DNA of 64,000 nt from Candidatus Latescibacterota bacterium (lineage in GTDB: Bacteria; Latescibacterota; UBA2968), in assembly GCA_965204745.1 (NCBI GenBank), contig OZ242010.1:320001-384000 (forward strand), read 5' to 3'. Numbering within the stretch: position 1 is the stretch's first letter; each line of letters begins with the position of its first letter. The translations under genes and the position numbers were made by a program. Below the pieces are notes generated by a model. That model saw nothing but the letters and a program-made list of their open reading frames with translations. It searched no databases and was not told the origin of the DNA. Shown here in pieces: positions 7,560 through 63,969 of this stretch.

Positions 7560-7633
7560 TGCCCCTTCGTCTAATGGCAAGACACTGGATTTTGGTTCCA
7601 GGTATCGGGGTTCGAATCCCTGAGGGGCAACCA
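7560..7633 (+). tRNA. tRNA-Gln(TTG)
   Basis: TGCCCCT acceptor stem, anticodon arm CTGGA-TTTTGGT-TCCAG, GTTCGAATC T-loop, encoded CCA. Confidence 0.97.
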
Positions 7634-7797: not shown

Positions 7798-7874
7798 TGG
7801 TCGGGGCGAAGGGATTTGAACCCCCGGCCCCCTGCTCCCAAAGCAGGTGCTCTACCGGACTGAGCCACGCCCCG
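7798..7874 (-). tRNA. tRNA-Pro(TGG)
   Basis: Reverse complement CGGGGCGTGGCTCAGTCCGGTAGAGCACCTGCTTTGGGAGCAGG...GTTCAAATCC...CCA. Confidence 0.97.
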
Positions 7875-33981: not shown

Positions 33982-34008
33982 AACAGCCTCCTTTGTGAGA
34001 ATCGACTC

Positions 34009-38333: not shown

Positions 38334-38346
38334 TCTCAGCTCCTCG

Positions 38347-41091: not shown

Positions 41092-41157
41092 AAGTTAGCT
41101 CCTCATCAAGCTGCCCTAGTCCCCCTCCCCGCGTGCGGAGAGGGGTTAGGGGAGGGG

Positions 41158-44100
41158 TTAAAATTTCATCCGCAAACCAAAGTGGAACTCGCGCGGCGAA
41201 TCCTGGAACCGCAGATAATCCCCCACATCGCCATAAGAGACGTATTCGGGATTGTCCGGCAATGGCGTGTAAATCACGCCCCATTCCACGTACTCGGCGC
41301 CCACTTCCACCAACTGGTTGTCCACGCGATAGCTGATGTGCGGGTCTTTCTGGTTGAACAGGTTGAACGATTCAAAAAAGATCGTCATGCTCGCACGCCG
41401 GTTGATGTTAAACGTCTTCTCGAAGTTGATATCAGTGCGCGTGTGAATCGGCCCGTTGAAAAATCCTTCACCGCCCTTTTCCGGCGGCGAATAGAAAAAC
41501 CTGCGCCCGGTGAACAAGCGGTACACCACGTTCAACCGCAAATTCTCAAAGGGCCGGAACCCCACAAACCGCGGCCCAAACGCCTTGGGAGACGAAAACA
41601 TAAACGTCACCGTGCCGAAGTTGGTGCGGTTCAAATTGGCAGGGCGAAACTCCTGAGATTGGTTGTTGCGCTGCAACCACGTCGACGCGCCTTTGCCATC
41701 CCAGTTGAGCAAGCTGTTTTCCTGATCCAGCGACCAGTTGTTGCGCCCGACGCCATCTTCGACCTGTTCGAGCTGATTGCGCGCTTGGCTACCAAACGCC
41801 TGCCCCCGTTGAAAGCGCGTAATCCCATCCATTGGCCGCGGGAACTCTTCGCCCGTGTCGTCGCCATTGACGATCCCTGGGCCATCGACGCCGTCGACGC
41901 CGGTAAAATCGCCATCGCCATTGGAATCCGCGGTCCACTCATACCAATAGTGCGACAAGAAATTGCCATTGTTGTCGATATAACCCGCGTAGTTGCCAAA
42001 GTTGGACGGGTTCTTCGTCGCCAGCCTGTCTGGATTGACATAGTGATGGCCGCGCACACCCGAGTTGCCATTTTCGACCCACTGCACGTTGTACGCTATC
42101 GTGAACGCGGTCATGTGGTTGAATTTCTTCTTCAGCGACAACTCAAAGCCGCGCGTGTCCCGGTTGTTCGTCTGGCCCGATGAATTTACCAACCTCTGAT
42201 GCTGCAAACCCTGAGATTGGTGGCGATAGCTACCACCACTGCGCCGGTTGACCTGTTGCTTGTAATACGCGGTCAGGCCCGCCGTGTAATCCGTGATGAA
42301 GTTCCAGTCCGCGCCCACTTCAAAACTCGTGGTGATCAGCGGCCTGAGCAACGGCCAACCCCACTGCCCGGCATCGACGACATCCTGCGTATTGTACAAC
42401 TCGGACTCGTCGATCCGACCATTCTGGTTCAAATCCAGAAAAGCCTCTTCGGTGCGATAGCTGTGCGAGAAAATCCACCAGAATTGCTCGATCTGCTCGA
42501 ACTTGCCAAACGTGAAGTGCATCGCACTGCTCTCTGTAATCGGATGCGACACCCCCACGCGCGGCGACAAGACGTGAATGGCCGGCGGGCGATAGGTCGG
42601 GATATTCTCGATCTTCGTGGGATCGTGATACTTGTACAGGGAAAGGAAATAGGCCGCCTGCGGCATCTCGGTGTTCGGGCTCCAGCGCAACCCGCGCAAG
42701 CCCACGTTCACCACAATGCCCTCGAACTCCATCTTGTCTTGGAAGTAAATCGAGTACTGGCGCGGCACAACCCCGACTTCGGGGTTGTTGAACTGGCTGT
42801 AATACCGGTCGATCAGGCCCCGAAAGTCGTTCTTGTTGCGGGAAAAGCCCCAGTTGTCGTAAAACAACATGTCGAACCCGGTTTTGATAAAGTGCCCCTT
42901 GGTCACTTGGCTCGAATAGTCGAACTTGATCTGGAGGCGATCCCGCTCGGAATTCGTCCAGTTCACCACCGGGCGACCGATGTAAAACCACCCCGATTCA
43001 TTGCCGATGCCCGGCTCCACGTAGGGCTGATCCGTGTTGACCGGCAATTCCGTATTCACCTCGGTCGTGCGCGAATACGACACGCGAATTTCGTAAAAGG
43101 TGCGCGCCGACAAGGTGTGCGTCAGCGACGCATAATTCATAAAATTGCGCGTTCGCAACTTGCCCGCCCCCGAGTATTCCGAGGGCACGAAGAGGTTGCG
43201 CCCCGAAGAATTCATATTCTTGCGCGACCCCTGCTCGATCCGCCGAATCACGCCCGCATTGTAGCGCGACCGCTGGTTGAACAGCGAACCGTAGTTAAAT
43301 TTGACGTTGCCACTCGGGCGATAGGTCAACTTCAAGTTCGTGCGGTTGTTGAACAGCGAGGTCGCGGTTGGCGCGGGCAATGACGACGGGTTGCGATTCA
43401 TCGAAGACGTCAACGTAAAGCCCATCTTTCTCACAATCGGCCCGCCGAGCATGGCCTCGCCGCGCCCGCCCCACACGCCCGTGTAGTCTTGGCGCACGTG
43501 AACTTTGCGCTGCACGTCATCAGCGGCAAATTCGGCATCGGTAATTTCCCCGGTTTCATTGCTGTGCCCCAAAATGCCATCTGCGCCGGGGAACCACGCT
43601 TGCAAGTTCTCCCATTCGCTGTTGCCCCACTGCATTCTGCCGCGATGCACGGGCGCCTCGTACACATTCGCGCCCCAGTGCTTCTGCCCCGGCGGCGTGA
43701 TGCGGTATTCCCCTCGGCCCGTGTATTTTTGACCGCCTTCTTTGGTCACCACGGAAACCACGGACCCGGCATTGCCGTACTCCGCATTCATCCCGCCGCT
43801 CAACACGGTCAATTCCTGCACCGCACTGGTATTCACACCTTCAAACCGCGTGAACCCGGCGCGCGCGTCATTGTTCACCACGCGCACCCCATCCACCATA
43901 TACGCGGTTTCCCAGAAGTTGCCCCCGCGCACGCTCTCTTCTTCATCCGGCGTCACGCCGGCCTGCAACTCCACAAAATCCGACATTTCGCGCACAATCG
44001 GCAACGACTCGATCTCTTCTGCGGTGATGACCGACTTGCTCTCGGTCTTGTCGTGCTCCACAGGCGGACGCTCCGCAACGACGATCATTTCGCCTAATTG

Positions 44101-44436
44101 CAGGGCTTCTTCCTGCATCTGAAAATTCACCGTCGTGGTATGGTCGACATTGATCACCACGCCCTGGCGCACGGACTTGGAATATCCCATCATCACGGTT
44201 TCGATATCATAGGTCCCAGGCGGGATGTTGATGATGAAATACTCCCCCTTCTCATCGGTGATCCCAGCGCGTTTCACGCCGTCGATGTCGATCACCACAT
44301 TGGCCCCGGGAAGCGGATCACCCGTAACCTCCGTGACCTTCCCGCTGATTTTACCCGTCGTGCCCGCATGCGCCAATCCCGTACAGATCAGCAACGCGCC
44401 CAACAAGCCCGAACAAAACAAGAATCGTTTGCCCAT
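41158..44436 (-). CDS. TonB-dependent receptor (CarboxypepD_reg domain, plug and barrel)
   Basis: TGKISGKV..PLPGANV, VRGG...YMVDG, SGGMNAEYG, SPRVGVSHPI, C-terminal Phe. Confidence 0.92.
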   Translation of the reverse strand: MGKRFLFCSGLLGALLICTGLAHAGTTGKISGKVTEVTGDPLPGANVVIDIDGVKRAGITDEKGEYFIINIPPGTYDIETVMMGYSKSVRQGVVINVDHTTTVNFQMQEEALQLGEMIVVAERPPVEHDKTESKSVITAEEIESLPIVREMSDFVELQAGVTPDEEESVRGGNFWETAYMVDGVRVVNNDARAGFTRFEGVNTSAVQELTVLSGGMNAEYGNAGSVVSVVTKEGGQKYTGRGEYRITPPGQKHWGANVYEAPVHRGRMQWGNSEWENLQAWFPGADGILGHSNETGEITDAEFAADDVQRKVHVRQDYTGVWGGRGEAMLGGPIVRKMGFTLTSSMNRNPSSLPAPTATSLFNNRTNLKLTYRPSGNVKFNYGSLFNQRSRYNAGVIRRIEQGSRKNMNSSGRNLFVPSEYSGAGKLRTRNFMNYASLTHTLSARTFYEIRVSYSRTTEVNTELPVNTDQPYVEPGIGNESGWFYIGRPVVNWTNSERDRLQIKFDYSSQVTKGHFIKTGFDMLFYDNWGFSRNKNDFRGLIDRYYSQFNNPEVGVVPRQYSIYFQDKMEFEGIVVNVGLRGLRWSPNTEMPQAAYFLSLYKYHDPTKIENIPTYRPPAIHVLSPRVGVSHPITESSAMHFTFGKFEQIEQFWWIFSHSYRTEEAFLDLNQNGRIDESELYNTQDVVDAGQWGWPLLRPLITTSFEVGADWNFITDYTAGLTAYYKQQVNRRSGGSYRHQSQGLQHQRLVNSSGQTNNRDTRGFELSLKKKFNHMTAFTIAYNVQWVENGNSGVRGHHYVNPDRLATKNPSNFGNYAGYIDNNGNFLSHYWYEWTADSNGDGDFTGVDGVDGPGIVNGDDTGEEFPRPMDGITRFQRGQAFGSQARNQLEQVEDGVGRNNWSLDQENSLLNWDGKGASTWLQRNNQSQEFRPANLNRTNFGTVTFMFSSPKAFGPRFVGFRPFENLRLNVVYRLFTGRRFFYSPPEKGGEGFFNGPIHTRTDINFEKTFNINRRASMTIFFESFNLFNQKDPHISYRVDNQLVEVGAEYVEWGVIYTPLPDNPEYVSYGDVGDYLRFQDSPREFHFGLRMKF

Positions 44437-50681: not shown

Positions 50682-53600
50682 TTACAATGCCAAGCCAAAA
50701 TAGATGCGGTACCCGCCGATTTCCTCGAGGACGGTCGGATCATTGCGGGAGGGGACTTCGCGTTTGGTGGGGCGGGCGAAGATGAGATAGCCGAACACGG
50801 GCAAGCGGTAATGCGAAAACATCTGGAAGCGCAACTCCGCGCCGTAATCCGTCAAGAAAGAACTTTTGATTTTGTCCCATCGCCCATCGTGGAGCGCGCT
50901 ATCCACAGAGAACAGATCGCCGAAACTCGCGGCATTGGACGTGCCGCCAAATTCAAAAAAGAGCGTGGCGTAAATTTTGTCAAAAAAGAACGGAGGCAGT
51001 TCCGCGCCGACGCGCTGAAACAGGGGAATGGTCAGCGACGTGCGCCCAAACAGGGCTTTGCCGCCAGCGGTCGTAAAATACGGGTACCCGCGCAACGTGC
51101 CCAACCCCCCGAGATAATAGCGCAGGGGATAGTAGAACACGCCCTCATACGTGCCCCCGTCTTGTCGTACTTCTTTGACATAGCCGTCTTTGTAGGCGCC
51201 AAAGACTTGAACAGCGAGCGTGTATCTGCCGGCGAGCGGGATAAATTCGTTGTAGGACGCGATGTATTCGTTGAAACTGACATTGGCTTTGTCGTCTCGA
51301 AAATACGCGGGCGACAAGTCATCGCCGATAGGGTCGGGCACGAAGTCCTCGTTGGCGTCGGGCGTGCGGGCGAGTGAATCCGTCACGGTCGCATTGATGC
51401 GCCGATAGCGAAAGCTCAAGGCGCGTCCGCCCGAGGGGTTGATGAAGAGATCGGTCGCCGGTTTGAGGGTGATGTAATTCCAACCGGCCATCCATTCGTG
51501 GCTTTTGAAAAAATCGAGGTCTTTGTACAGAAAATTGTCGAGAATGGTTCTCTCCGATCCGTAATCCGAGTTGGGAATCTGATCCGTAATATCTGAAACC
51601 GTGCCGGTCTCCAAGTTGGTCTGAAAAATGCGCGTGCTATCGTGGACGACCTGAACCGCGTGGAGGTTTTCCGCGTACTTGCGAAAGCCATACGCCATGC
51701 TGACCGCGTGCCCGCGCCCGATCCCCATTTCCGCGCCCACGGTAAAATCCGAGAAAACATCCTTAAAATCGTCTTCTTCTGTCACCGTGAGGTTTAAGTA
51801 CTGAGTGACATTGGGGATCAGCACTTGTTGCCCCTCGCTGTTTTGGGAGACCAATGTGCCGCTCATGGTATCGCGCACGGTTTGCACAGCGCCCAAATCC
51901 ACGATGCTGTTGATGGTTTGCCGGCTGCCCCCAAAGAAGATGCGCGGGAAGTACGCGCGTTGTTCAGACAAAATGGGGGTCAAGCTGTTTTGGTAAAAAA
52001 AGGCAAATTCCGAGTTGAAATCCTGTTGCCGTTTGAAGTTCTTGCCGATCAGCGCGGTGGAAACAAAAACGTCATTGCCGAGCAGATCGCCCCAGGCCCA
52101 TTGAAAGCCCGCGCTGATTTGATCCAAGCCAAATCGGTTGCCGATAAATGTGGGCCCCAACAAGGCGATAGGCGTGATGCCATAAGACACGAGGCGCGGA
52201 GAATAACGCCCGATGTCGTGGAGATCGGCGATGGCTTTGCCGGTGTAAATTGTGGCGTAATCGCGTTCGACGCCCTCGGCCGCGTCAACCGCTATGGCCT
52301 CGGCCATGGGGATGCGATACAAATTGTAATTCGCCGCGCGATAGCCCACGTAGATCGCGTCGCTCGCGTCGGGCGACAAGGTGGGCAAAAACGCGCCGCC
52401 GATGACATTGGTCAGTTGCTTTTGCGCGCCGCTTTCTAGGTCGTGCGTGTACAGATTGAAAATGCCCGTGCGGTCCGAACTGAAGACGAAGCCACTGCCG
52501 TCGGGTAGCCACACCGGGTCGCGCTCGTCGGCTTCGGAATGTACGAGGGCCCTAAACTTGGCGTTGTTCGCATAGGCCACGCTGTCCGGGAATGCCGCGA
52601 GGCTGTCTGCCCGCGCTTGTTGGAGGCTGTCTAATTGGGTTTCGGCTTTTTCTGGGTCGAGCGCGCGGCGGCCCTGGTCTTTTTTCCAAGGCGTGGCATC
52701 GATGTCGATGATGGCAATGTCTCGGTCCTCACCGGTGCGGAACACGCTGAAGAGCAGGCGCTCGCCGTCGGGCGACCACTTGGGGCCGAAGTACTGAGTG
52801 GCGTCGTTGTTGTTCGTGAGGAATCGCACCTCCGTGCCATCGGTGTTGACGAGGCCGATATTGGCCGTGCCGTCTCGCATGGTCACAAAGGCGATTTGCG
52901 AGCCGTCGGGCGACAGCGCGGGATCTTTGCCGCGCAGCCCCACGGTGACGCGGGTCTCTTTTTTTGCGGTCAGGTCATAAGTGAAAATGTCCCACCGAGG
53001 GCCCACGGCTTTGATGTACATGAGGCTGTCGCCGCTGGCGGTCCACACAAAGCGATTATCCACGCGATCCGCGATTTTCGTCACTTTTTTGGTGGCGAGA
53101 TCCATCACTTTGAGTTCGGTGATGAAATAATCGCTGTCGTCATTGGAGATAAAGCCCAACTTGCTGCCATCGGGCGAATAGACCGGATGATAGTCCAAAC
53201 TGCCCAAATCCGCGATCAATTCGCCCTCGCGCTCATCTTCTTGGACCGCGGTTTGCACGGCGCGGTACTGTTCGCCGATGTGCGCGGTCCAGTCCCGATA
53301 GAGTTGTTTGGCGGAAACCCCGGTGGCTTTTTTGAGCGAGGAGTTGAAATTGACGATGGGCTTGTGTTCAAAAATTTGCCTGACTGTGGCGGGGCAAAAG
53401 CGGTCGCCGATGTAGTTGATCATGGCATATCCCTGATTGTACACCATTTCCCCGTGGAAACTGCCCTTGCCCCCGAGTTGCCCCATGCTGGGCAACGACA
53501 ACAAGTCGTTTTCGAGGGATGCCATCCGCAGCAACATGTCTCGGTGCGTGTCCCAACGGTCGTCGCCGTATTGCGCGGCTTCCCACTGGGCAATGCCCTC

Positions 53601-54248
53601 GGCAAAACCCGCACTGACCGCGAGGTGATACAAGCCGAGCGTAAAGTTGAAATCGGGATTTTCATTGGCGCGGGAGGTATTGATCAGGCCGATTTGAAAT
53701 GGCAATCCCTTGTGCGCGGCTTTCAGGGAGACGATGTGCGTGAGTTCGTGGACGAAAACATTGCGAACCCAGTCGCTGGTGCCGCGGATCTCCCAGTCGA
53801 TGGGATTGGTCCAAAAGTGGATGTAATTCGCGCTGTATATGGCATACGCATTGCCCAAAAAATCCGCCTGATCGTCAACGACGACGTGGATGGGCGCGAT
53901 GCGATCCACAAAGGTGGGATAATGCCGCATGAGATTGGACAACACGTCGTCGCAAAAATCGGCGATCTGGCGCGCGGTTTTTTCCGCAGTCGAGAAATAG
54001 ATGTTGAAATACCGGGTGCGAATCACTTTGGCACTCGCCGACCGCAATCCCAAAAGAGACGGGAAAAAGCCATCGGCAGTTTCGGGCGTCCAATACGTAT
54101 AAGGCTTTTGATCCGGCGACGGGCGGTTCAGAGGGGTATTTGCCAAATCGACCCCAATGGCTTTGGCAGGGCCTAAAGACGGGGGCTGTGCAAGTGTTGC
54201 GAGAGGACTAAGACCGATGAAACACAGGACAGACAAAAAAGTTTTCAA
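50682..54248 (-). CDS. Omp85/BamA-superfamily protein with N-terminal HExxH metallopeptidase-like domain and PD40 beta-propeller
   Basis: HELTH...FAEG; repeated SPDG motifs; LGGLGTLRGY barrel motif. Confidence 0.8.
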   Translation of the reverse strand: MKTFLSVLCFIGLSPLATLAQPPSLGPAKAIGVDLANTPLNRPSPDQKPYTYWTPETADGFFPSLLGLRSASAKVIRTRYFNIYFSTAEKTARQIADFCDDVLSNLMRHYPTFVDRIAPIHVVVDDQADFLGNAYAIYSANYIHFWTNPIDWEIRGTSDWVRNVFVHELTHIVSLKAAHKGLPFQIGLINTSRANENPDFNFTLGLYHLAVSAGFAEGIAQWEAAQYGDDRWDTHRDMLLRMASLENDLLSLPSMGQLGGKGSFHGEMVYNQGYAMINYIGDRFCPATVRQIFEHKPIVNFNSSLKKATGVSAKQLYRDWTAHIGEQYRAVQTAVQEDEREGELIADLGSLDYHPVYSPDGSKLGFISNDDSDYFITELKVMDLATKKVTKIADRVDNRFVWTASGDSLMYIKAVGPRWDIFTYDLTAKKETRVTVGLRGKDPALSPDGSQIAFVTMRDGTANIGLVNTDGTEVRFLTNNNDATQYFGPKWSPDGERLLFSVFRTGEDRDIAIIDIDATPWKKDQGRRALDPEKAETQLDSLQQARADSLAAFPDSVAYANNAKFRALVHSEADERDPVWLPDGSGFVFSSDRTGIFNLYTHDLESGAQKQLTNVIGGAFLPTLSPDASDAIYVGYRAANYNLYRIPMAEAIAVDAAEGVERDYATIYTGKAIADLHDIGRYSPRLVSYGITPIALLGPTFIGNRFGLDQISAGFQWAWGDLLGNDVFVSTALIGKNFKRQQDFNSEFAFFYQNSLTPILSEQRAYFPRIFFGGSRQTINSIVDLGAVQTVRDTMSGTLVSQNSEGQQVLIPNVTQYLNLTVTEEDDFKDVFSDFTVGAEMGIGRGHAVSMAYGFRKYAENLHAVQVVHDSTRIFQTNLETGTVSDITDQIPNSDYGSERTILDNFLYKDLDFFKSHEWMAGWNYITLKPATDLFINPSGGRALSFRYRRINATVTDSLARTPDANEDFVPDPIGDDLSPAYFRDDKANVSFNEYIASYNEFIPLAGRYTLAVQVFGAYKDGYVKEVRQDGGTYEGVFYYPLRYYLGGLGTLRGYPYFTTAGGKALFGRTSLTIPLFQRVGAELPPFFFDKIYATLFFEFGGTSNAASFGDLFSVDSALHDGRWDKIKSSFLTDYGAELRFQMFSHYRLPVFGYLIFARPTKREVPSRNDPTVLEEIGGYRIYFGLAL

Positions 54249-54329
54249 CTTTTACTCCTTTACGATGGGTGGGAAATGGCATTCAGCTTCACGGGGGTTG
54301 GGGACTGGGGGCGCGCTTGGAAATGGGCG

Positions 54330-54623
54330 TTACAATTCCAGCACTTTGACCACGCGATCAATGGTTTCTCCATGTTTGGCACGGGAGATTTCCAAGTCGT
54401 ATTGGACTTGCAATCGCATCCAGATACCCGGGGTCGTTCCAAAATAACGCGCAAGTCTGAGGGCAGTATTGGGCGTCACGGAACGCATCCCACGCACGAT
54501 TTGGCTGATTCGCAATGGGGGAACGCCGATGTCCTTGGCGACGCGGTATTGACTCAAACCCAGGGGCTTCATAAAGTCTTCGAGAAGCACCTCGCCCGGA
54601 TGAACAGGAGGAAGTTTTTCCAT
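54330..54623 (-). CDS. higA: HigA-family antitoxin
   Basis: PVHPGEVLLEDF, TALRLARYFGT...W..LQ..YDL. Confidence 0.92.
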   Translation of the reverse strand: MEKLPPVHPGEVLLEDFMKPLGLSQYRVAKDIGVPPLRISQIVRGMRSVTPNTALRLARYFGTTPGIWMRLQVQYDLEISRAKHGETIDRVVKVLEL

Positions 54624-54636
54624 TTTTTGATCTCCG

Positions 54637-54672
54637 TCAGTGGTAGTCCGTGATTTCTACGCGGTGAGCATC
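54637..54672 (-). pseudogene. higB: C-terminal remnant of a HigB toxin
   Basis: DAHRVEITDYH* is the characteristic HigB end; the rest is replaced by repeats. Confidence 0.75.
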
Positions 54673-54673
54673 G

Positions 54674-55027
54674 GGTCGCTCTGACGGCGTTGACCGAGGG
54701 GACCTATCCCCCGGCCCCGTTATTCGCTTCGCTCATTGTAGGCTACGCCTGTGCCTACGAGGAAAGGGGAGTAAAGTTCCTTTGATGGCTTCTCGCTCTG
54801 GTCGCTCTGACGGCGTTGACCGAGGGGACCTATCCCCCGGCCCCGTTATTCGCTTCGCTCATTGTAGGCTACGCCTGTGCCTACAAGGAAAGGGGAGTAA
54901 AGCTCTTTTGGTGGCTTTGGGCGAATGGATCACGCCATAGAACCCAAAAAACCTCTCGAGCAATCCCTCGGAAGACCCATCACCGTTCCCCCTTCCTCTT
55001 AGGAAGGGGGTTAGAGGGTAGGTCCCC
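54674..55027. repeat. Tandem ~103-bp duplication (54674-54776, 54800-54902) merging into a family C MITE
   Basis: Two near-identical GGTCGCTCTGACGGCGTTGACCGAGGGGACCTATCC...GGAGTAAAG units. Confidence 0.85.
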
Positions 55028-55077
55028 CTCGCAAAACCGCTCAAGCCAGTTGCTTTGCTCGTAAATGTCAACACGAC

Positions 55078-56022
55078 CTAATGATGCCTCAAAATACACG
55101 CGACGCGATGGCCCGATTCAATCTCCAAAAGCGCTGGCATTTCCCGCGCACAATCGCGCACCGCTTCGGGGCATCGCGGATGGAACGGACAACCCGATGG
55201 CCTGTTGATCGGGCTGGGCACGTCACCCGTCAATCTGATGCGCGAGCGGTTGACGCGCGGATCGGGCACGGGAATGGACGAGAGCAAGGCGTGCGTATAG
55301 GGGTGTTGCGGGTTGTCGTACAAGTTTTGGCTAGGGGCCAATTCGACAATACGGCCCAAGTACATGACCGCCACGCGATTCGAGATGTGTTTGACCACGC
55401 TCAAGTCGTGGGCGATGAAGAGATAGGCCAAGCCGAACCGCGCTTGCAAGTCCTGAAGCAAGTTCACAATTTGCGCTTGGATGGACACGTCGAGCGCGGA
55501 CACGGGTTCGTCCGCCACAATGAATTGCGGTTTGACGGCCAAGGCGCGCGCAATGCCAATGCGCTGCCGCTGGCCCCCGGAAAACTCGTGCGGATAGCGG
55601 CGGGCCGCATCCGGGGACAAACCCACCGTGTTGAGCAAATCAGCGACCCGATCTTTTTCCCCGTGGATTTTTAGGGGTTCCGAGAGGATGCCGCCAACCG
55701 TGAGGCGCGGATTGAGCGATCCATAAGGGTCTTGAAAGATGAGTTGCATGTGCCGGCGCAATGCGCGGAGTTGCTTTTTCTCGAGCGAGAACACATCCGT
55801 ATCCCGGAACCGAACCGCGCCTGCGGTCGCGTCGATCAAGCGCAAAATCGCCCGACCGACCGTGGTCTTCCCGCATCCGGATTCGCCCACCAAGCCGAGG
55901 GTCTCGCCGGGCGCAATATCAAAACTCACGCCATCCACCGCTTTGACCTGCCGCGTTGCGCGCCGAAAACCCCCGCGCGAGATGGGGTAGTGTTTTTTGA
56001 GATTTTGAACTTGGAGGAGCAT
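55078..56022 (-). CDS. oppF: Oligopeptide/dipeptide ABC transporter ATP-binding protein (OppF/DppF type)
   Basis: [33 protein letters not shown]. Confidence 0.9.
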
Positions 56023-56541
56023 GAGAGTAGTTAGTCCGCCCCGCCCTTCAACCCTTCAGGTGAGACGGGAGAGGGAAGACGTAAGAGGGCCGCCCCACTC
56101 GCTTCAAGCGAGATGTGAGACCAAATTGAATTTCTGTTGACCTCATGTGATGCGATATGCGACAGCAAGTGATCCCCTTGACGTTCCGTAGTCATTCAAA
56201 GAAGCGATAATTAAGAATGCCCTCGCAAAAGCCCATCAGCTAAAGCCATCAGGCACAGCGCGCAAGTCCGTCTCGCAACCAACGTCCATTATGCAACCCA
56301 CTTTGCAGGCTGGCGCATGTCGTTTTGTTACAAAAGCGATTTGCGCTGTGCAAGCCTCTCGGCGTTTGAGAGTGCCCTTTTTTGCTTCTTTTTTGGGCAA
56401 GCAAAAAAGAAGTCGCCGAAGGCATCGAAGGCAACCAACGAGGCTTTAGGACCAAATGCCTTAAATGAGCAAGCAACACATTTGCTAATCTGTGCGCGTA
56501 ACGTTAAAAAATAAAATGTCAACACGACCTAACCACTGATT

Positions 56542-57504
56542 TTAAGCCATCCAACACGCGGTTTGGTGATCGCCCGCCATCGTTTTTAATGGTGGAATGG
56601 ATTCGCGGCAAATCGCATCCGCGCTTTCGCATCGGTCGGCAAAGCGACACCCGGAGGCAAAGCGCGTGGCTTCGGGCACATGGCCCGGAATGGTTTTGAG
56701 GCGGTCACGCGCCACATCCAAGCGGGGCACGGACGCGAGCAAGCCTCGGGTGTAGGGGTGCATGGGATGGTGAAAGATCGCATCGGCCGGCCCCATTTCC
56801 ACAATTTTACCCGCGTACATCACCGCCACGCGATCCGCGACCTCGGCAATGACGCCCAAGTCGTGCGTGATGAGCAAAACCGCCATGCCGAGTTGGCGTT
56901 GCAAATCGCGCAACAAATCCAGGATTTGGGCCTGAATGGTGACGTCGAGCGCGGTGGTGGGTTCGTCGGCGATGAGAACCTTGGGATCGCACGAGAGCGC
57001 CATGGCGATCATCACGCGCTGGCGTTGCCCACCGGACAACTGGTGCGGGTATTCGTCTGCCCGCTGTTCCGGATCGGGCAAGCCGACCAAGTGCAACATT
57101 TCCACTGTTTTGCGCCGCGCTTCTTTTGGCGAAAGCCCCTGATGCCGGCGCACGGCTTCATCCACTTGAAACCCGCAGGTGTACACCGGGTTGAGGCTGG
57201 TCATGGGTTCTTGGAAGATCATCGCAATCTCATTGCCGCGCACGTCTCGCATTTCGAGGTCGGACAGGGCGAGCAGGTCGCGGTTGTCAAAAAAAATGTG
57301 CCCACCTTCAATGCGGCCAGGATAGGGCACCAATCGCATGATGGACAGGGAAGTAACGCTCTTGCCGCATCCCGATTCACCCACGAGCCCAAAGGTTTCG
57401 CCCGCGTTGAGTGTGAATGATACACCATCTACGGCCCGAGCCGTTCCGCTGTCTGTATGGAAGTGCGTTTGCAGGGTATCAACTGTCAGCACAGTATTTG
57501 GCAT
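56542..57504 (-). CDS. oppD: Oligopeptide/dipeptide ABC transporter ATP-binding protein (OppD/DppD type)
   Basis: [34 protein letters not shown]. Confidence 0.9.
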
Positions 57505-57720: not shown

Positions 57721-58452
57721 TTAAAACAAAGGCAACTGGAGCATGAGCCATTCTTCGAGCAAGAAGCCGACGCGACCGATCAACAGGGAAAGACGCGCCA
57801 TGATGGTGTAGCCAAAGGACGCGCCAAACGAGATCATGAGAAAATAAATGCCGATTTTGGACGCGATGCCGACCGGGCCCGTGTGTTCGAAAGAATAAAA
57901 GAAATAGACGAGCACGGTCACGACGCCGACCAGAATGAGAAAGAGATCGAGTCCCGCCCAGTCCAGCGTGATGGCCTGCATCGTCAACTCCATTTGGGCG
58001 AGCAAATTGGCCGCGATGGTGCGCGGGATGGCGAGGCCAGATCCCAGGCCCACGACAAACGCAAATGCGATGCGGCTGAGCCAACTGTACTTTGCCGCAG
58101 AGAGTTGCGTGAGCATAAAAAACCCGAGCATGGTGGGCACGAGCAACCACAAATTGTCCAGGCTTTCGCCATCGAGTTCCCGAAGGGGCGTGATGACGTC
58201 GGTCAGGAGCACGGTGTACCACACCTGACTGAGCGTGTACGCGGCCGCGACGCCCACGTAGAGGTTTTCGGCAAATTTGAAGAGGGGATTGTCTTTGTAC
58301 AAAAAGCTGTAGAGCGACAGGGTAATGCCGGCCGCGATGAACGTGCCCAAGCCATCCCAGTCCATAGACAAGCTGTTCGAGGCAAAGAGGTACAGATTGA
58401 CCGCGGCAAAGACCACTAAAAAGACGAAAAAAATGATGGAATCGCGATTCAC
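57721..58452 (-). CDS. Uncharacterised polytopic membrane protein (DUF6754 operon)
   Basis: Several hydrophobic helices; SFLYKDNP...AE and MISFGASFGYTIMAR motifs; GTGA overlap. Confidence 0.8.
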   Translation of the reverse strand: MNRDSIIFFVFLVVFAAVNLYLFASNSLSMDWDGLGTFIAAGITLSLYSFLYKDNPLFKFAENLYVGVAAAYTLSQVWYTVLLTDVITPLRELDGESLDNLWLLVPTMLGFFMLTQLSAAKYSWLSRIAFAFVVGLGSGLAIPRTIAANLLAQMELTMQAITLDWAGLDLFLILVGVVTVLVYFFYSFEHTGPVGIASKIGIYFLMISFGASFGYTIMARLSLLIGRVGFLLEEWLMLQLPLF

Positions 58453-59279
58453 CGAGCACCGCCTTTCTGCCGTCCGTACAGGAAATACATCACATTGCCC
58501 AAGACGATGAACAAAATGATGATGAGATGCACAAAGGATTGGGCGCCCATGCCCGCGGTGGCTTTGCCCGATGCGTCAATCAGGGTTTCGTATTCGGCCG
58601 CGCCGGCCAAGCCGCCCATCATGCCGTGCATTTGCCCGGTTTGCAAATAGGGATATTGATCGGGCGCCATCACCGCTGTGCAGCCGAGGCCGAATTTGAA
58701 TTTGTAGCGTTCCTGACCGTAGGGGATCCATGTGCCGTCCGGGGTGTTGCCAGAGGCCAAGCAGATCACGTAGTCGAAATTCGCCAATCCCTTGATGTTT
58801 TGCGTGACGGGCAATTCGGTTGTGTCGCTGCCGCGCAGGTCTTTTTGAAACGCGCCGTGAAAGTCGCTGCCCATGTTGATGACCAATGACCCCCCGCCCG
58901 GCTTGAACCCCAAGAACGTGTAATCCTCGCCGTATTGCGCGCCGTATTCTCCCGCGGCGGTTTCAAAGGCTTGTTGCGCGAGGCCCACAGAGGTCGGAAC
59001 GTGCGACATGCCGATCACTTTGATGCGGTTGCGAAAACAATGGCGCAACACCGAGATGGCCATGGGTTGCACTTCGGGCTTGGCGCTAGGGCCATAGTCG
59101 AACGAGATGAGCACCGTGCCGTTTTTCGCGCCCACGTCTTCAACGGTGTCGTAAAACGCTTGCACATCTTTGGTAATGGGGATGGGCATACGCACCGGCG
59201 CCAGCGAGGGAATGATAATGCCGAGCGCGACGAACGCGAAGATGATGCGACGGTCGATATTGTGCAAAAATGCTTTCAT
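58449..59279 (-). CDS. Uncharacterised membrane-anchored alpha/beta protein (DUF6754 operon)
   Basis: N- and C-terminal TM helices; GGLAGAAEYE motif; ATGA overlap. Confidence 0.8.
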   Translation of the reverse strand: MKAFLHNIDRRIIFAFVALGIIIPSLAPVRMPIPITKDVQAFYDTVEDVGAKNGTVLISFDYGPSAKPEVQPMAISVLRHCFRNRIKVIGMSHVPTSVGLAQQAFETAAGEYGAQYGEDYTFLGFKPGGGSLVINMGSDFHGAFQKDLRGSDTTELPVTQNIKGLANFDYVICLASGNTPDGTWIPYGQERYKFKFGLGCTAVMAPDQYPYLQTGQMHGMMGGLAGAAEYETLIDASGKATAGMGAQSFVHLIIILFIVLGNVMYFLYGRQKGGAR

Positions 59280-59935
59280 TCTTCGCCTCCGCCGAGATAC
59301 GAGCGTTCAATGCCAAAGATGATCCGCAAGGCCGTTGCGACCGCGCCCAAGCTGACGCCGAGCAAGATGCCGCGCTTGGCCGCCAAATTGGGCACGTCCA
59401 TCATCCATTGGGCGAGGTCGGGCAATTCCTGGTAAATGACCGCGCCAATGGGCACGCGCCCGATCATGACGATGATGGCCGATACGAGCAGGATGGCCGC
59501 TTCGATGGTGCGCGCGCGAAAGGTGCGATACGCCGCCGATGCGATGAAAAACGCGAGGATGGAGAACATGGTGGCGTCCGCGGGCACTTGCACGTTTTTG
59601 TACATCCACACAAAGGGGCCCGTGTCGATTTCTTGGGGATTGTGCGGCCACTGTCCGTCGTTGTAAATCGCAAACAGGGTCATGACCGCAAAGCCCAAAA
59701 ACACGAGAAAGCTGTACCCCCAGCCGGGGTTCTGCCGCCGCACGCGGCTCCAGTGCAAGCGCATCAAGCTGTAGATGCCCAGCACCAGCGCGAACGCCGC
59801 CACGATGCGATCCCACTTGGTCAATTCCAATTCGAGGCTTTCCGCGTCGCTGTGTGGAATGTAAAAACACAGAATGCCGATGATGCCCATGACAAAGGCG
59901 ATGATCAGCGGGAGTGTGCGTCTAAAAAAAAGCAT
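59276..59935 (-). CDS. Uncharacterised polytopic membrane protein (DUF6754 operon)
   Basis: TMFSILAFFIASAAYRTFRAR and LRIIFGIERSYLG motifs. Confidence 0.8.
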   Translation of the reverse strand: MLFFRRTLPLIIAFVMGIIGILCFYIPHSDAESLELELTKWDRIVAAFALVLGIYSLMRLHWSRVRRQNPGWGYSFLVFLGFAVMTLFAIYNDGQWPHNPQEIDTGPFVWMYKNVQVPADATMFSILAFFIASAAYRTFRARTIEAAILLVSAIIVMIGRVPIGAVIYQELPDLAQWMMDVPNLAAKRGILLGVSLGAVATALRIIFGIERSYLGGGEE

Positions 59936-59947
59936 GAAAGACTCCTG

Positions 59948-61378
59948 TTAATACGCCGAGAAAACGTGCGTGAGTTCCTGAAAGTCAAAGACGGTCGCCA
60001 AAAGCGTACCCAAGATCATGGCGATCAAGAGCACGGCTTTGCCGATGTCCTGCCCCTTGAGGCTGCCGAGCAACTTGGGTTCGCGGGAGAGATACGCGCT
60101 CGCGGCGTAGAGTTCTTCGCCCATCAAGGTGTAGTCGCAGGTGGTGATGAAAAAGGGCAGTTGGGTGTAGGAATCCGTGCCCGCGATCTGAATCGCCCCG
60201 ATAGACGCGCCGGTTTCGGCCAAGAGCAGAGATTCCGCAAAGAAATAGCCCATCAGGATGTTGGTCGCAGGTCGGTCGCGCACCATCATGCCGTCGAGCG
60301 CGGCAGCATAACTAAATTGCTCGGTGGCGACCATGAACACCATGTCCTCGGAATACGCGTCGGGCCGCCCGGCATTGAGATAGGATTCCTTGACGACCTC
60401 TCGGCTCACGGCCAGAACCACGGGGTCGTTGTTGGCGACGCGCAATTCCGTATTAAATTCAGCGGTGCGATTCGCAACGCGCGAGAGCACGTTGATCGCC
60501 GCAATGGTCGAGACGCTGCCCATCGACGCCAAGCCGTGTGCAAAGAGCACGGGTTTGCCCATTTCCGTGGCGCGCCCCAGGGCCTCGTCCAAGGCTTCGA
60601 GGCCCGCGATGCGCCGAATGAACAGGTCGCGCTTTTGCGCGAGGATGATGCCGCCCAAAATGATGAGCGAAAACACCGTGCCGATGACAAAATTGTTTGC
60701 TTTGGCCCAGTTGAAGAAATTTTCAGCCGCGGTTGCAGACGCGATAGCAAAGGGCACTGTCTCGCCGGAAGGGAGATGCGCGTTGACCCGCACGTAATAG
60801 GTTTTGCCGTTTTCAATGGGGATCCGCTTTGACGGATCCGCGGGATCGGCATAGTCGGTGATTTTGGCAAAGAGCATGTGATGCGTTTCCTCGCCGTGCC
60901 CAAAGGTGCCGGGTTCGCTAGATTGCAAATCGATCCTGCTGATCCCAGTGGGATGAAAAGGCCCATTTTCCGATTCGCCAACTGCGATTGTGAATTTGAG
61001 TCCTTCGGGAGATTCGAGGATTTTCATGAGTATAAATGCCATCAGTTTATTTTTATTTGACCATTCCTCAATTTCCAATCCAAAATGTTCCACTAAGTCC
61101 CGGATGTCGTCAATGAGGTCGCCGAAGCTCGGATGCGACATTGCCCGGAAAAGATTATTGTCAATGAAGTCGCTGATGTCCCATGTAACGGTGATGCTAC
61201 CGCCCGAGTCGTTGGGGGTGTCTATCGCTCGCACCACAGGGGGTTGCTGGAACGCTGTTGCCCGCACCTGTGCGCGTATAACCCCCAGGGTGTCTTTCGC
61301 TTGCACCACAGGGGGTTGTTGGGCCTGCACCTGCGCCGCGCAAATCAGCAGAGCGCACGACAAAAAACAATATCGCAT
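59948..61378 (-). CDS. DUF6754 domain protein with N-terminal Fn3-like exported region
   Basis: DTPNDSGGSITVTW; IRRIAGLEALDEALGRATEMGKP; QLPFFITTCDYTLMGEELYAASAYL. Confidence 0.8.
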   Translation of the reverse strand: MRYCFLSCALLICAAQVQAQQPPVVQAKDTLGVIRAQVRATAFQQPPVVRAIDTPNDSGGSITVTWDISDFIDNNLFRAMSHPSFGDLIDDIRDLVEHFGLEIEEWSNKNKLMAFILMKILESPEGLKFTIAVGESENGPFHPTGISRIDLQSSEPGTFGHGEETHHMLFAKITDYADPADPSKRIPIENGKTYYVRVNAHLPSGETVPFAIASATAAENFFNWAKANNFVIGTVFSLIILGGIILAQKRDLFIRRIAGLEALDEALGRATEMGKPVLFAHGLASMGSVSTIAAINVLSRVANRTAEFNTELRVANNDPVVLAVSREVVKESYLNAGRPDAYSEDMVFMVATEQFSYAAALDGMMVRDRPATNILMGYFFAESLLLAETGASIGAIQIAGTDSYTQLPFFITTCDYTLMGEELYAASAYLSREPKLLGSLKGQDIGKAVLLIAMILGTLLATVFDFQELTHVFSAY

Positions 61379-61390
61379 ATCTTTCTCCCG

Positions 61391-62509
61391 TTATTCTTGA
61401 ATCAACTCGACATTGGCGCGGGGCACGATGGCGCGGTCGCCATTTTCAAATTCGACTTCGAGCACGCGCACGCGGGTTTCCGATTCGACGGTTTGCAACT
61501 CGGGCGGCAGGGCCGTGACTTTGCCCACGCGCCCAAAATGCGGCGCGCGAATCGCCCGCAAGTGCGCCCCTTCCGCGAGGCCCACCTGATCGGCTTCTTC
61601 GGCGCGATGATCCGCACCGACTTCTGGGATGATGATTTCGGGCCGCAACACGCCTGCGCGGATTTGCGTGGCGCCCGAGAGCGAGGCTTCTTTGCCGTGG
61701 TTTTCGCGCAGAATGTCAAAGGTTTTGCGCGCCATCGCAATGGGGCCAAAGCCCTCGGTGACGATGACCGTGAGGCCGATATCCTCGGTGCCGGTGATGG
61801 CCACGCCCAAGTCGTAGCCGAGCAGGTCGCGCAGATCTGCATCGCGGATCCCGCCGCCGATGATGCCCACCGCGCCGCAGGCCCGCGCTTTGTCGATTGC
61901 GGCTCGGGTCAACAAATTGCCTCCCACGACGATTTTGCCCGCGCACTCGGCGTCGATCTGATCCGCGCTCAGGGTCTCATCCGGCTCGCCGGAGATGACG
62001 TGCAGGTTGCCCCAGGTTTCGCCGCCCACGCCAAAGATGCCCTGCACAAAAACGCCGGTGGTTTCGATGATGACGCCTTCGTCCGGCAAGACCTCGACCA
62101 CGTTGCCGTCGATGTAGGCCCTGACCTGAACGGGCCGCGGCGGCGCGCGAAACAGGACTTGCCCGGTGATTTTGGAGATGTTTTCGAGCGTGCCGCCAAT
62201 CGGGGCTTTGACCGTGGTTTTGAACCATTTGATGAAGGGCCGCGTCTCTGCAATGGGTTCGCCCGCTTGCACCGCGTCGCCTTCGCGTTTGAGCATGTAA
62301 TTGGGCAATTCCTCGGGCGTGCAACTCAAGATGTTGACCAAATTGAGGGTGGTGACATTGCCGGGCAAGTCCGTGCGCGCAACGACCTGATCGCGCGTGA
62401 CCCCATCGCCCCGCGCCACCACGACCTCGCCCTTGAGGGGCAGTTGCCGTTGCCGCCGAATCCTCGCCCGCCGCGTCACGCGAAGCCCGGGTGTGTATGC
62501 ATGTGCCAT
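61391..62509 (-). CDS. Uncharacterised soluble protein with barrel-sandwich-hybrid-like repeats and C-terminal KOW/SH3-like motif
   Basis: MAHAYTPGL start; repeated G.V.V..GD.V motifs; VRVLEVEFENG..VPRANVELI. Confidence 0.78.
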   Translation of the reverse strand: MAHAYTPGLRVTRRARIRRQRQLPLKGEVVVARGDGVTRDQVVARTDLPGNVTTLNLVNILSCTPEELPNYMLKREGDAVQAGEPIAETRPFIKWFKTTVKAPIGGTLENISKITGQVLFRAPPRPVQVRAYIDGNVVEVLPDEGVIIETTGVFVQGIFGVGGETWGNLHVISGEPDETLSADQIDAECAGKIVVGGNLLTRAAIDKARACGAVGIIGGGIRDADLRDLLGYDLGVAITGTEDIGLTVIVTEGFGPIAMARKTFDILRENHGKEASLSGATQIRAGVLRPEIIIPEVGADHRAEEADQVGLAEGAHLRAIRAPHFGRVGKVTALPPELQTVESETRVRVLEVEFENGDRAIVPRANVELIQE

Positions 62510-62981
62510 AAAAAAATTCCGGTTTGCTCGACCATCGGTCAAGCGTTTGACAACTGATTGTGCAAGATAAACATTTTTGGCGTAAAAGTCCTGTTAATTT
62601 TTTTCAAACGCAGAATCGATTTGTACCCTGTTCTGCACATTCAAGCGAGCACGGGGGCACCGCCCCTACACATATCGCTCGCCTTTGAATGGGCTGTCGC
62701 CATGTACCCCTTTTGTGCCTTTGAATGGGCTGTCGCCAGTTGTACCCCGCTCGTGGCTAAAATCCCTCTCCCATCTCGCCTCTTACCTCTTGTATCTTTG
62801 GACGATCATTACATCTGCGCCCTCTACATGATCTGCGACCCGCCTTTGGGCGGCGATGGGCGGGGACTGACCACTGACTACTGACTACTGACCACTGGCG
62901 GTTGGGCGGGGCGGTCTCGCCTCTCGCCTCTCGCCTCTCCCGTCTCACCGAAGGGCGGTGGCGGAGCGGCGATCTCGCCTT

Positions 62982-63341
62982 TCACAATCCCGCTCGTTGG
63001 AGAATGACCTCGCCGAGTTTCTCGTGCAGACCCAAGGGCGCGGTGACGCGGATAGTGACGCCGGGATGTGTTGCCGCGGCTTCTGTTGCCAGGCGCGGAA
63101 TGTCTTGGGTGGCATGGCGTCCGGGCGAGAGCATGTAGGGATGCACGACTATTTCAGTCGCACCCGCACGCACACATGCCGCAATGCCCTGCCCGATGCT
63201 CGGTTCGGCCAGTTCCATGTGCGCGATCTGAACGATGAGTTGCGGGCGTTTTTGACGCAGGATCTCGGCAACGCCATAAAGCATTTGATTGGCTTCTTCA
63301 CGCCTTGAGCCGTGATCGACAATGAGGAGCGCGGTACGCAT
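62982..63341 (-). CDS. CbiX/SirB N-terminal domain protein (small class II chelatase)
   Basis: DHGSR, HMELAEP, HPYMLSPGRH...DIP. Confidence 0.88.
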   Translation of the reverse strand: MRTALLIVDHGSRREEANQMLYGVAEILRQKRPQLIVQIAHMELAEPSIGQGIAACVRAGATEIVVHPYMLSPGRHATQDIPRLATEAAATHPGVTIRVTAPLGLHEKLGEVILQRAGL

Positions 63342-63372: not shown

Positions 63373-63969
63373 TTACAACTGCCGCAACCGATTCAAAAGT
63401 GCCTCGGCATGCGGACAGGCGGTTGCCACGAGAGCGGGGTCAATGTGTGCCAGCAATTCAAATGAGACCTTGCCCTTGGCATAGTGTTTGGTGCATGCGG
63501 CGGTAGCGCATTTGAGCGCGTAGAGGACTGTTGGCTTGGGCACGGCCTCTAAGCCGGGCCATTTCTTGAGCGCGTTTTGCCTAAACCTTGCGCCGAAGTA
63601 CTTTCGCAACGCATCTCTATCGGCCAAGAACCAAGTCTCCATGGCTTGAACCATTAAAAACGCCTGATCGTCGTCCGCGTTGGAAGGCCGTTGCCAACCG
63701 TCGCGGGCGGACAAGTGTTGCCAAACCGTGTGTCCCTTCGCAACAGGATCCTCGCTGTCGACGAGCAGGATCGGAACCACGTTAGGGCGATTATTCTCGA
63801 TGGCTGTGACAAAAAGGTCAAAGGTCTTGTCTCGCCCGCCGCCCCGTACAATCTTCGTCTTGCTAGCAAGGTCAGCTTTTTTGAAAAACGCATTCCAACC
63901 CTCGCGGAAACGCGCTCCGAGCTCTCGACCCTCGCCACCGCCCTCAATGTATAGCGTGGCTCTTACCAT
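63373..63969 (-). CDS. DUF4276 family protein (TOPRIM-like)
   Basis: YIEGGG, LLVDSE, MVQAMETWFLAD, YAKG, CPHA. Confidence 0.85.
   Translation of the reverse strand: MVRATLYIEGGGEGRELGARFREGWNAFFKKADLASKTKIVRGGGRDKTFDLFVTAIENNRPNVVPILLVDSEDPVAKGHTVWQHLSARDGWQRPSNADDDQAFLMVQAMETWFLADRDALRKYFGARFRQNALKKWPGLEAVPKPTVLYALKCATAACTKHYAKGKVSFELLAHIDPALVATACPHAEALLNRLRQL

Follow-up and report, generated by a model that had tools for sequence, protein, structure and literature searches.

The stretch analysed here, hereafter the window, is a 64-kb piece of contig OZ242010.1 from a Candidatus Latescibacterota bacterium. Its minus strand carries five genes, A to E, which an earlier note on this DNA had described as an uncharacterised membrane-complex operon of co-oriented genes separated by 12-nucleotide (nt) gaps or 4-nt overlaps. 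The open reading frames (ORFs) are arranged in just this way (Table 1): A and B, like B and C, are 12 nt apart; C and D overlap by 4 nt (ATGA), as do D and E (GTGA); and purine-rich stretches resembling Shine-Dalgarno sequences lie ahead of B, C, D and E. An alternative start for A, a TTG at 62542 in open frame, would add 11 residues. Measured against the orthologues in the closest relative found (locus L001, about 90% identical at the DNA level, which also served as the reference for synteny), the ratio of nonsynonymous to synonymous substitution rates (dN/dS) is 0.17–0.29 for all five genes; A to E are therefore real genes under purifying selection. Scans of the region for sigma-70-type promoters and for terminators stayed at background level.

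The five proteins have no recognisable function, as the earlier note had said. Pfam searches returned a single family above threshold, DUF6754 in B, and nothing meaningful for C, D or E; NCBIfam gave no match for A to E; no PADLOC model matched A to E or the three further proteins M, S and c6 introduced below; and no PDB sequence was matched significantly by the profiles of A to E, M and S. In the ESM Atlas the clusters matching A and D were all labelled ‘hypothetical protein’. A search of one literature library found no paper naming DUF6754, PF20539, PF13941 or TIGR01319, and nothing relevant under phrases for GlmL. Comparison of the system's own members by hhalign gave 0.7% for B against D and 1.7% for C against E, so the set contains no internal paralogues.

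Table 1. Genes and other features of the window that are discussed in the text.
Feature	Position	Strand	Details
Gene A	61391-62509	-	372 aa from ATG; soluble, no transmembrane segment by hydropathy
Gene B	59948-61378	-	476 aa; DUF6754 membrane protein
Gene C	59276-59935	-	219 aa; six-helix membrane protein (hydropathy, alignment A3)
Gene D	58449-59279	-	276 aa; transmembrane helix at either end (hydropathy, alignment A4)
Gene E	57721-58452	-	243 aa; polytopic membrane protein (hydropathy, sequence reading, alignment A6)
Conserved 5′ leader of A	62510-62604	-	window 62604-62564 matches L001 8643-8683 at 92.7% (blastn); nothing farther upstream matches
OppD-like ABC ATPase gene	56542-57504	-	ABC_tran and oligo_HPY; 216 nt after E
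OppF-like ABC ATPase gene	55078-56022	-	ABC_tran and oligo_HPY; downstream of OppD
CbiX-type cobaltochelatase gene	62982-63341	-	E = 8.7e-31; small; first gene upstream of A
DUF4276 gene	63373-63969	-	second gene upstream of A; PADLOC HEC-01B, E = 1.1e-66; candidate anti-phage gene

DUF6754 is a large family. A word-index search returned at least 8000 matches, and an exhaustive search at E ≤ 1e-3 gave 2131 clusters (50% identity), 734 of them with E ≤ 1e-30. An alignment of 49 diverse members (A1), used as query for a scan of a collection holding one genome per species, retrieved at least 632 loci; the best 79 of these, each with 10-kb flanks, make up the neighbourhood set to which the counts below refer. 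Homologues of A to E were located among all six-frame ORFs of these loci with the window proteins as queries, and taxonomy was taken from the record titles. Twelve loci are named as Latescibacterota, 28 as Nitrospirota, nine as Planctomycetota (including Scalindua, Brocadiaceae, Anammoxibacter and Phycisphaerae), five as WOR-3 and five as Poribacteria; Methylomirabilis, Myxococcales, Edwardsbacteria, Stahlbacteria, Coatesbacteria and Eisenbacteria are represented once each. The rest are unclassified metagenome-assembled genomes or differently named members of the 15 closest loci (L001–L015), a block that we grouped as Latescibacterota-like.

All homologues of A to E lie on the strand of B in 79 of 79 loci. 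The order ABCDE occurs in 42 loci and BCDE in 25; three loci have ABCD, three ABC, one BC and one B alone, and four are rearranged. The seven ABCD, ABC and BC loci stop 344–1424 nt past their last gene, that is, at contig ends. An apparent order ABDCE in L021 was discarded as an artefact of sorting ORFs by their midpoints: envelope coordinates put D after C. Spacing, given here as approximate values, is tight: the median is −4 nt between B and C (≤30 nt in 67 of 77), 2 nt between C and D (≤30 nt in 43 of 73, ≤150 nt in 65 of 73) and −4 nt between D and E (≤30 nt in 20 of the 21 measurable cases). The order B-C-D-E and its tight spacing are kept across about ten phyla, far beyond chance, and the gene-neighbourhood check that the earlier note had proposed thus found a gene order conserved across taxa. 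Gene A lies directly upstream of B in 50 of the 79 loci. It is not a constant part of the membrane core: it travels with an ATPase module rather than with B-C-D-E.

Additional genes accompany the cluster in some loci. Extra E-like copies occur in L024, L030, L045, L047 and L049, some of them directly upstream of B, and extra D-like copies in L047 and L049. In 20 loci, every one Nitrospirota-like (in the range L028–L074; for example L039 13414-14694), the next gene after E on its strand is a member of the Memo family (PF01875, E = 3.4e-47). A small ORF upstream of B in five loci without A (cluster c33) was considered and set aside: it is MazG-like by sequence and matches none of the profiles of the system.

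The module with which A travels comprises two further genes. When the other ORFs were clustered, 48 loci proved to have a same-strand family, M, just ahead of A, and 46 a small ORF, S, ahead of M; profile searches of the 79 loci found A in 50, M in 48 and S in 47, and S then M precede A in 48 of the 50 A-bearing loci. The two A loci without M are L048, which starts 130 nt before A, and L031, in which a HEC-01 pair lies upstream instead. M adjoins A in 46 loci, and in L005 and L015 OppA, OppB and OppC lie between them. The M protein of L016 matches PF13941 from end to end (432.2 bits, cut-off 27; E = 2.9e-129); it also matches Hydantoinase_A, less strongly. M is 65–77% identical between phyla and contains three invariant motifs, DCGSTTTK, DIGGATTD and GSGG, which we take to be the phosphate-1, phosphate-2 and adenosine motifs of actin-fold ATPases. 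Its sequence marks M as an actin-fold (ASKHA) ATPase of GlmL-like type whose nucleotide-binding motifs are intact. The earlier note had suggested that similar clusters elsewhere lie beside a GlmL/MutL-like gene, and that this gene is absent here; the PF13941 gene found upstream of A bears out the first point, and the second agrees with tblastn and profile searches in six frames, which detected no M, S or c6 in the window. S, of about 110 aa, has no Pfam or PDB relative and looks mostly helical.

The small protein c6 (142 aa; L001 5792-6220) has two hydrophobic helices and a conserved C-terminal domain, with no family match; its gene precedes S in 18 loci, mostly Latescibacterota.

Natural fusions join M to A. 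Among the 68 A homologues longer than 652 aa, 67 are M–A fusions of about 1000 aa with M at the N-terminus, which argues that A works with M; by the names given at source, some of them come from Planctomycetota, Neomarinimicrobiota, Ozemobacteraceae, Aegiribacteria and Fermentibacteria. Two B–C fusions (P0270, P0271) and one A–B fusion (P0332) were set aside as evidence of contact. Both gene pairs are in frame with 12-nt spacers in the window, so that a lost stop codon would mimic a fusion, and these proteins are given little weight; furthermore, a B–C fusion conflicts with the predicted topologies, and P0332 ends midway through DUF6754.

Structures were predicted with AlphaFold2 for A and B, and both models were compared with the PDB by Foldseek. 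The model of A (predicted local distance difference test, pLDDT, 86.4) has an N-terminal beta region, an alpha/beta domain at about residues 165–300 and a small C-terminal barrel. Foldseek found no whole-chain relative of A in the PDB (best E = 1.2e-4, TM scores 0.1–0.25), and the weak matches fall into three groups. Those to the N-terminus are of the barrel-sandwich-hybrid type: biotin carboxyl carrier proteins, the membrane-fusion protein BesA and NqrA (7xk3_A, E = 7e-3, TM 0.12; also 8acy_A and 8acw_A). The middle resembles swivelling beta/beta/alpha domains, including those of RraA, Staphylococcus aureus pyruvate kinase (3t05_A) and glycerol dehydratase reactivase (1nbw_A; E = 1.6e-2, probability 0.60, 232 columns), and the C-terminus resembles the KOW domains of Spt5 and NusG. 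Profile searches against PDB chains gave RraA (E = 0.02) and Spt5 KOW (E = 0.13–0.58) as best matches of A, neither of them significant, and two Pfam matches fell short of their cut-offs: RnfC_N (E = 1.3e-4, 22.4 bits against 25.6) and Biotin_lipoyl (14.9 bits against 22.1). From these weak domain-level matches, A would be a soluble cytoplasmic protein with a barrel-sandwich-hybrid-like N-terminus, a swivelling beta/beta/alpha middle and a KOW/SH3-like C-terminus; the earlier note had recognised the two ends and overlooked the swivelling domain between them. Given its gene neighbours and fusions, A is best read as the adaptor of a putative S-M-A ATPase module.

B matches DUF6754 (PF20539), a family without functional annotation, over residues 218–467 (376.3 bits against a cut-off of 27, E = 7.8e-113). 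In the AlphaFold2 model (pLDDT 84.8 overall, 95–98 over the alpha/beta domain) an N-terminal signal or anchor helix is followed by a beta-sandwich ectodomain, a first transmembrane helix (224–249), the DUF6754 domain (258–431) and a second transmembrane helix (434–464), and hydropathy likewise gives two membrane segments besides the N-terminal one. Residues 258–431 are modelled as a six-stranded Rossmann-like alpha/beta domain, predicted to be cytoplasmic. The description of B as an Fn3-DUF6754 protein in the earlier note is correct as to DUF6754, and the modelled ectodomain is indeed a beta-sandwich, but Pfam finds no fn3 match in it. Foldseek returned only generic alpha/beta proteins from the PDB for B (Nir2 LNS2, E = 4.5e-4; MthK RCK; eIF2B-like proteins; a molybdenum-cofactor-binding protein). 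Among the 49 diverse homologues, 34 columns of DUF6754 are invariant; they include several Arg, Glu and Gln, one Cys-Asp pair and a GEE, and no His. DUF6754 proteins range from 263 to 1276 aa, always with the conserved domain at the C-terminus, and are 55–65% identical across phyla; in 30 long ones the ectodomain contains a PQQ_2 beta-propeller in six cases and fn3 in one. Compared with L001, the window's B has about 76 extra residues in its ectodomain (476 against 400 aligned codons).

The extra segment of B (window 60987-61288) corresponds to a low-confidence helical segment, residues 68–122 of the model. A motif QQPPVV(Q/R)A occurs twice near the N-terminus of the protein.

The remaining three genes encode the two polytopic proteins and the membrane-anchored protein that the earlier note had described. 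C has about six transmembrane segments by hydropathy. Among its 61 homologues longer than 385 aa, 59 are split by an insert at one site, between helices 3 and 4; the inserted domain is D-like in six of the 61 (including L071, E = 3e-24), FG-GAP/VCBS in six, CBM_4_9 in one and YHS in one. In D, two transmembrane helices, one at each terminus, enclose a soluble domain of about 215 aa (its ‘alpha/beta’ label comes from a reading of the sequence and is provisional); basic residues flank both helices at the outer ends of the sequence. From the distribution of basic residues in C and D, the loop between helices 3 and 4 of C and the soluble domain of D are both predicted to be periplasmic. The D-like domain inserted in the loop of C would place a D-type domain beside C on the outer face, which lends independent support to a contact between C and D. 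E has at least three membrane segments by hydropathy and six or seven by reading of the sequence: six helices are conserved, and one extra N-terminal helix is present in the clade of the window, most homologues aligning from about residue 30. The motifs that the earlier note had singled out as conserved-looking do fall on invariant or nearly invariant columns of the alignments: GEELYAASAYL in B (columns G420, E421, E422, A425, A426, A428 and Y429), GIERSY in C, GAAEYE in D and KDNP in E.

The copy in the window is an ordinary family member with two peculiarities: the extra segment in the B ectodomain and a separated S-M unit. By blastn, identity to L001 is 88–91% from A through E, OppD, OppF and a large PD40-repeat gene. 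Similarity ends at window position 62604, 95 nt upstream of A and inside the 540-nt M–A spacer of L001. Since synteny is lost within this spacer and other genes lie beyond, a break or an insertion has, on the alignment, parted the S-M unit from A-E; it extends past the end of the window. OppABC occupy the same spacer in L005 and L015, which makes it a recurrent breakpoint. In gene layout the system appears to behave as two transcription units.

On the downstream side, no minus-strand terminator-like site was found between E and OppD, in a scan that was itself at background level, and A to E probably form a transcription unit of their own together with OppD/F. In this phylum OppD/F are probable operon partners; whether they belong to the system is uncertain. 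Opp genes lie beside or inside the system in 12 of the 15 closest loci, with OppD/F after E in six of the 15 and OppA before the system in eight of the 15; in the window itself, no OppABC is present anywhere in the 64 kb. OppD and OppF are ordinary members of the Opp/Dpp family, and the interleaving of such genes with the system in Latescibacterota suggests a link with peptide uptake, as a lead for that lineage and not as a general property.

What might such a system do? With a little less than even confidence, we propose that A to E are one instance of a widespread, undescribed envelope system, a four-subunit inner-membrane machine with a separable ATP-driven cytoplasmic module, which moves or handles a ligand; transport as the output, taken alone, is a weaker claim than the statement as a whole. 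In this model the cytoplasmic membrane would hold a complex of B, C, D and E with about 16 helices, which would expose the strongly conserved Rossmann-like domain of B to the cytoplasm and the domain of D to the periplasm. Lineage-variable ectodomains would be displayed by the N-terminus of B and by the loop between helices 3 and 4 of C (beta-propeller, Fn3, FG-GAP or CBM in relatives). The S-M-A module would dock on the cytoplasmic face through A, and M–A may use ATP as the GlmL and diol-dehydratase-reactivase ATPases do, by conformational exchange in the alpha/beta domain of the partner. The output would most likely be a substrate or ligand moved across or along the inner membrane, and not redox-driven ion pumping. 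A physical complex appears plausible from the natural fusions, M with A and a D-like domain inside C; the complex of five put forward in the earlier note is plausible to this extent, except that A is not a constant member of the core. A complex prediction for A with residues 250–435 of B, run without controls, scored 0.00 against a mark of 0.32 and is uninformative either way.

The model for the ATPase module comes from the reactivases of diol and glycerol dehydratases (DdrAB, GdrAB; 1nbw), which act by ATP-driven subunit exchange. The architecture of the system may be analogous, with an actin-fold ATPase and a putative swivelling domain (M plus A), joined in the M–A fusions, and a small partner, S. 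The differences are that the client is presumed to be a membrane complex, that A has domains of barrel-sandwich and KOW-like type in addition, and that S looks mostly helical, not Rossmann-like; A, M and S have no significant sequence match to any PDB chain, reactivases included. A bolder form of the proposal, which we consider unlikely, is that the system represents a new class of machine in the membrane, one whose energy source is an actin-fold (ASKHA) ATPase and not an ABC, AAA+, P-type or rotary one. A reactivase-like M–A would act on the Rossmann-like domain of B, and the exchange would be passed via the 16 or so helices to D and the ectodomains, driving ligand import, export or handling; in Latescibacterota the ligands might perhaps be peptides passing to or from Opp.

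Several observations weigh against the proposed machine. One locus, L063, has DUF6754 alone, and in L045, L047, L049 and L050 the genes are rearranged and lie several kb apart. In at least 18 BCDE loci whose upstream sequence extends for 2 kb or more, A, M and S are all missing nearby; either the core can do without the ATPase module there, or another part of the genome encodes it. M scores far under the GlmL cut-offs: in NCBIfam it reaches 224 bits against 475 for GlmL, 206 against 600 for Or-4 and 157 against 204 for the GlmL subfamily, so that it is related to these families and stands outside them. With Foldseek matches this weak for A and B (best E about 1e-4, whole-chain TM 0.1–0.25), the analogy with reactivases is one of domain type and of the family of M, not of homology of the whole module. 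Folds were compared for A and B, and fold-level relatives of C, D, E, S and M could have escaped. The association with Opp is confined to one phylum plus L019, and no homology of any protein of the system points to a substrate.

Among the other explanations we rank an adhesion or signalling complex first, a link with cobalamin after it and a redox or ion pump after that. The first would be an envelope-spanning adhesion, tethering or signalling complex whose ectodomains bind ligands and are coupled to an actin-fold ATPase, which might polymerise; we consider it unlikely, while giving it serious weight. It would account for ectodomains that vary greatly in size and type (263–1276 aa; beta-propeller, Fn3, FG-GAP, CBM) beside cytoplasmic parts that are unusually conserved, M and DUF6754 alike, and the actin superfamily comprises both polymers and enzymes, as set out in PMC5597319. 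The nearest families of M (GlmL and the hydantoinase branch) are, however, non-polymerising enzymes; no kinase, cyclase or helix-turn-helix output domain recurs in the neighbourhood; and the twelve conserved polytopic helices of C and E exceed the needs of a tether. That M might instead be a reactivase for a B12 cofactor held in the Rossmann-like domain of B, making the system a membrane B12 enzyme or trafficking device, is an idea to which we assign a low probability. The closest named families of M, GlmL/MutL and Or-4, are accessory proteins of B12-dependent glutamate and ornithine mutases, which use adenosylcobalamin; the cytoplasmic domain of B is Rossmann-like as B12-binding domains are; and a CbiX gene lies just upstream of A in the window. 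M shares with GlmL the match to PF13941 and the actin-fold motifs, and differs in some 120 additional C-terminal residues and in its frequent fusion to A. Yet M falls well below the GlmL cut-offs and adjoins genes for membrane proteins, not mutases: S, c6, Memo and Opp genes recur beside the system in the 79 loci, and mutase or B12-binding genes are not among the recurrent neighbours. The lack of an invariant His in DUF6754 leaves no DxHxxG-type ligand, the listed Foldseek matches of B include no B12-binding domain, and CbiX is not at this position in L001 and is matched by no ORF of the 79 loci at E ≤ 1e-10.

The earlier note had suggested a transporter or an ion-translocating complex, and a respiratory or decarboxylase pump akin to Rnf, Nqr or Oad, with A as an NqrA/RnfC-like peripheral subunit and B to E coupling a reaction to Na+ or H+ transport, is one form of the second idea. 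Both Rnf/Na+-NQR and the present system are multi-subunit membrane operons; the barrel-sandwich-hybrid N-terminus of A brings the sub-threshold RnfC_N match and the weak Foldseek matches to NqrA, a few distant M–A fusions carry precomputed NQRA or RnfC_N labels, and a peripheral protein, two proteins of about six helices, one with a periplasmic domain and one with a cytoplasmic Rossmann-like domain make up a superficially Nqr-like set. The membrane subunits nevertheless have no detectable kinship with those of Rnf. Against Escherichia coli Rsx (Rnf), hhalign gave probabilities of 2.4% for A with RsxC, 1.0% for C with RsxA, 1.0% for D with RsxG and 0.1% for E with RsxE, and A to E have no Pfam match to Rnf-Nqr, NQR2_RnfD_RnfE, FMN_bind, OadB, carboxyltransferase, ABC or ECF families. 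What defines the Na+-translocating decarboxylases (Oad, Gcd, Mmd) was likewise not found: Biotin_lipoyl stays below its cut-off, and neither carboxyltransferase nor OadB matches any of A to E. The invariant or nearly invariant columns of A to E hold no cysteine cluster, inspection of the sequences revealed neither a flavinylation nor a biotinyl-lysine motif, the predicted membrane helices of C and E conserve mainly small or aromatic residues and not acidic ones, and A is missing from a third of loci. A pump of this kind is thus very unlikely. Least probable of all, in our estimate, is that an unusual ABC importer, with B-C-D-E as its membrane part, makes use of OppD/F in Latescibacterota. OppD/F do follow directly after E, without OppB/C in the window or within 10 kb in L001, L002, L003 and L007, and A-E lie between OppC and OppD in L005 and L015. 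But outside Latescibacterota such ATPases are near only L019; six loci have OppA without OppD/F; L005 and L015 have ordinary OppB/C permeases for their OppD/F; C and E match no ABC-permease family; and, unlike Opp/Dpp, A to E include neither a BPD_transp_1 permease nor an SBP_bac_5 protein. The cluster is more than a chance assembly and is explained by no known system: it has no detectable relation to characterised complexes.

The machine that we propose, a membrane core with a separable ATPase module, would matter for several reasons. The system is common and strongly conserved and has no described function (at least 632 loci; 2131 DUF6754 clusters at 50% identity), and the identity of M between phyla is at a level usual for core machinery. 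Its carriers are important in the nitrogen and carbon cycles: they include Nitrospira, anammox Planctomycetota, Methylomirabilis, Latescibacterota, Poribacteria and WOR-3 and, going by the source names of M–A fusions, Marinimicrobia. Should an actin-fold ATPase indeed drive a membrane complex, ATP would be coupled to the membrane in a manner that is new. For co-purification and cryo-electron microscopy, the seven genes, as a defined unit in which fusions occur naturally, offer clear constructs.

The region upstream of A in the window has features of its own. HEC-01B, the PADLOC match of the DUF4276 gene, belongs to a system, HEC-01, reportedly named in a bioRxiv preprint (10.1101/2024.01.29.577857), and its usual ATPase partner would lie past the end of the window. 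In the unrelated locus L031 a HEC-01A/HEC-01B pair (832-2582; E = 9.7e-128 and 1.1e-46) takes the place of the missing S-M, 11 nt ahead of A; the DUF4276 proteins of the window and of L031 are 24% identical, so the two insertions look independent. Within 470 nt upstream of A, a perfect 22-nt direct repeat, GCCTTTGAATGGGCTGTCGCCA, occurs at 62681-62702 and 62717-62738, 36 nt apart, and several CT-rich repeats of 14–26 nt are found in 62765-62985. These repeats may be regulatory sites or scars of rearrangement.

Downstream, L001 lacks two segments of the window, 54273-55078 and 56041-56542. In the former, an HTH_3 (HigA-like) gene with a product of 97 aa (54330-54623) lies between those for OppF and the PD40 protein. 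The PD40 gene (50682-54248, minus strand), syntenic with L001, encodes a secreted PD40 beta-propeller protein of 1188 aa with an HELTH (HExxH) motif, possibly a metalloprotease. Elsewhere in the window, the stretches 32695-35799 and 37311-44436 hold between them a DUF1800/DUF1501 pair, two sulfatases, a gene resembling those for TonB-dependent receptors and a weak match of PorV-like type, and there are two tRNA genes at 7560-7630 (plus strand) and 7801-7874 (minus strand).

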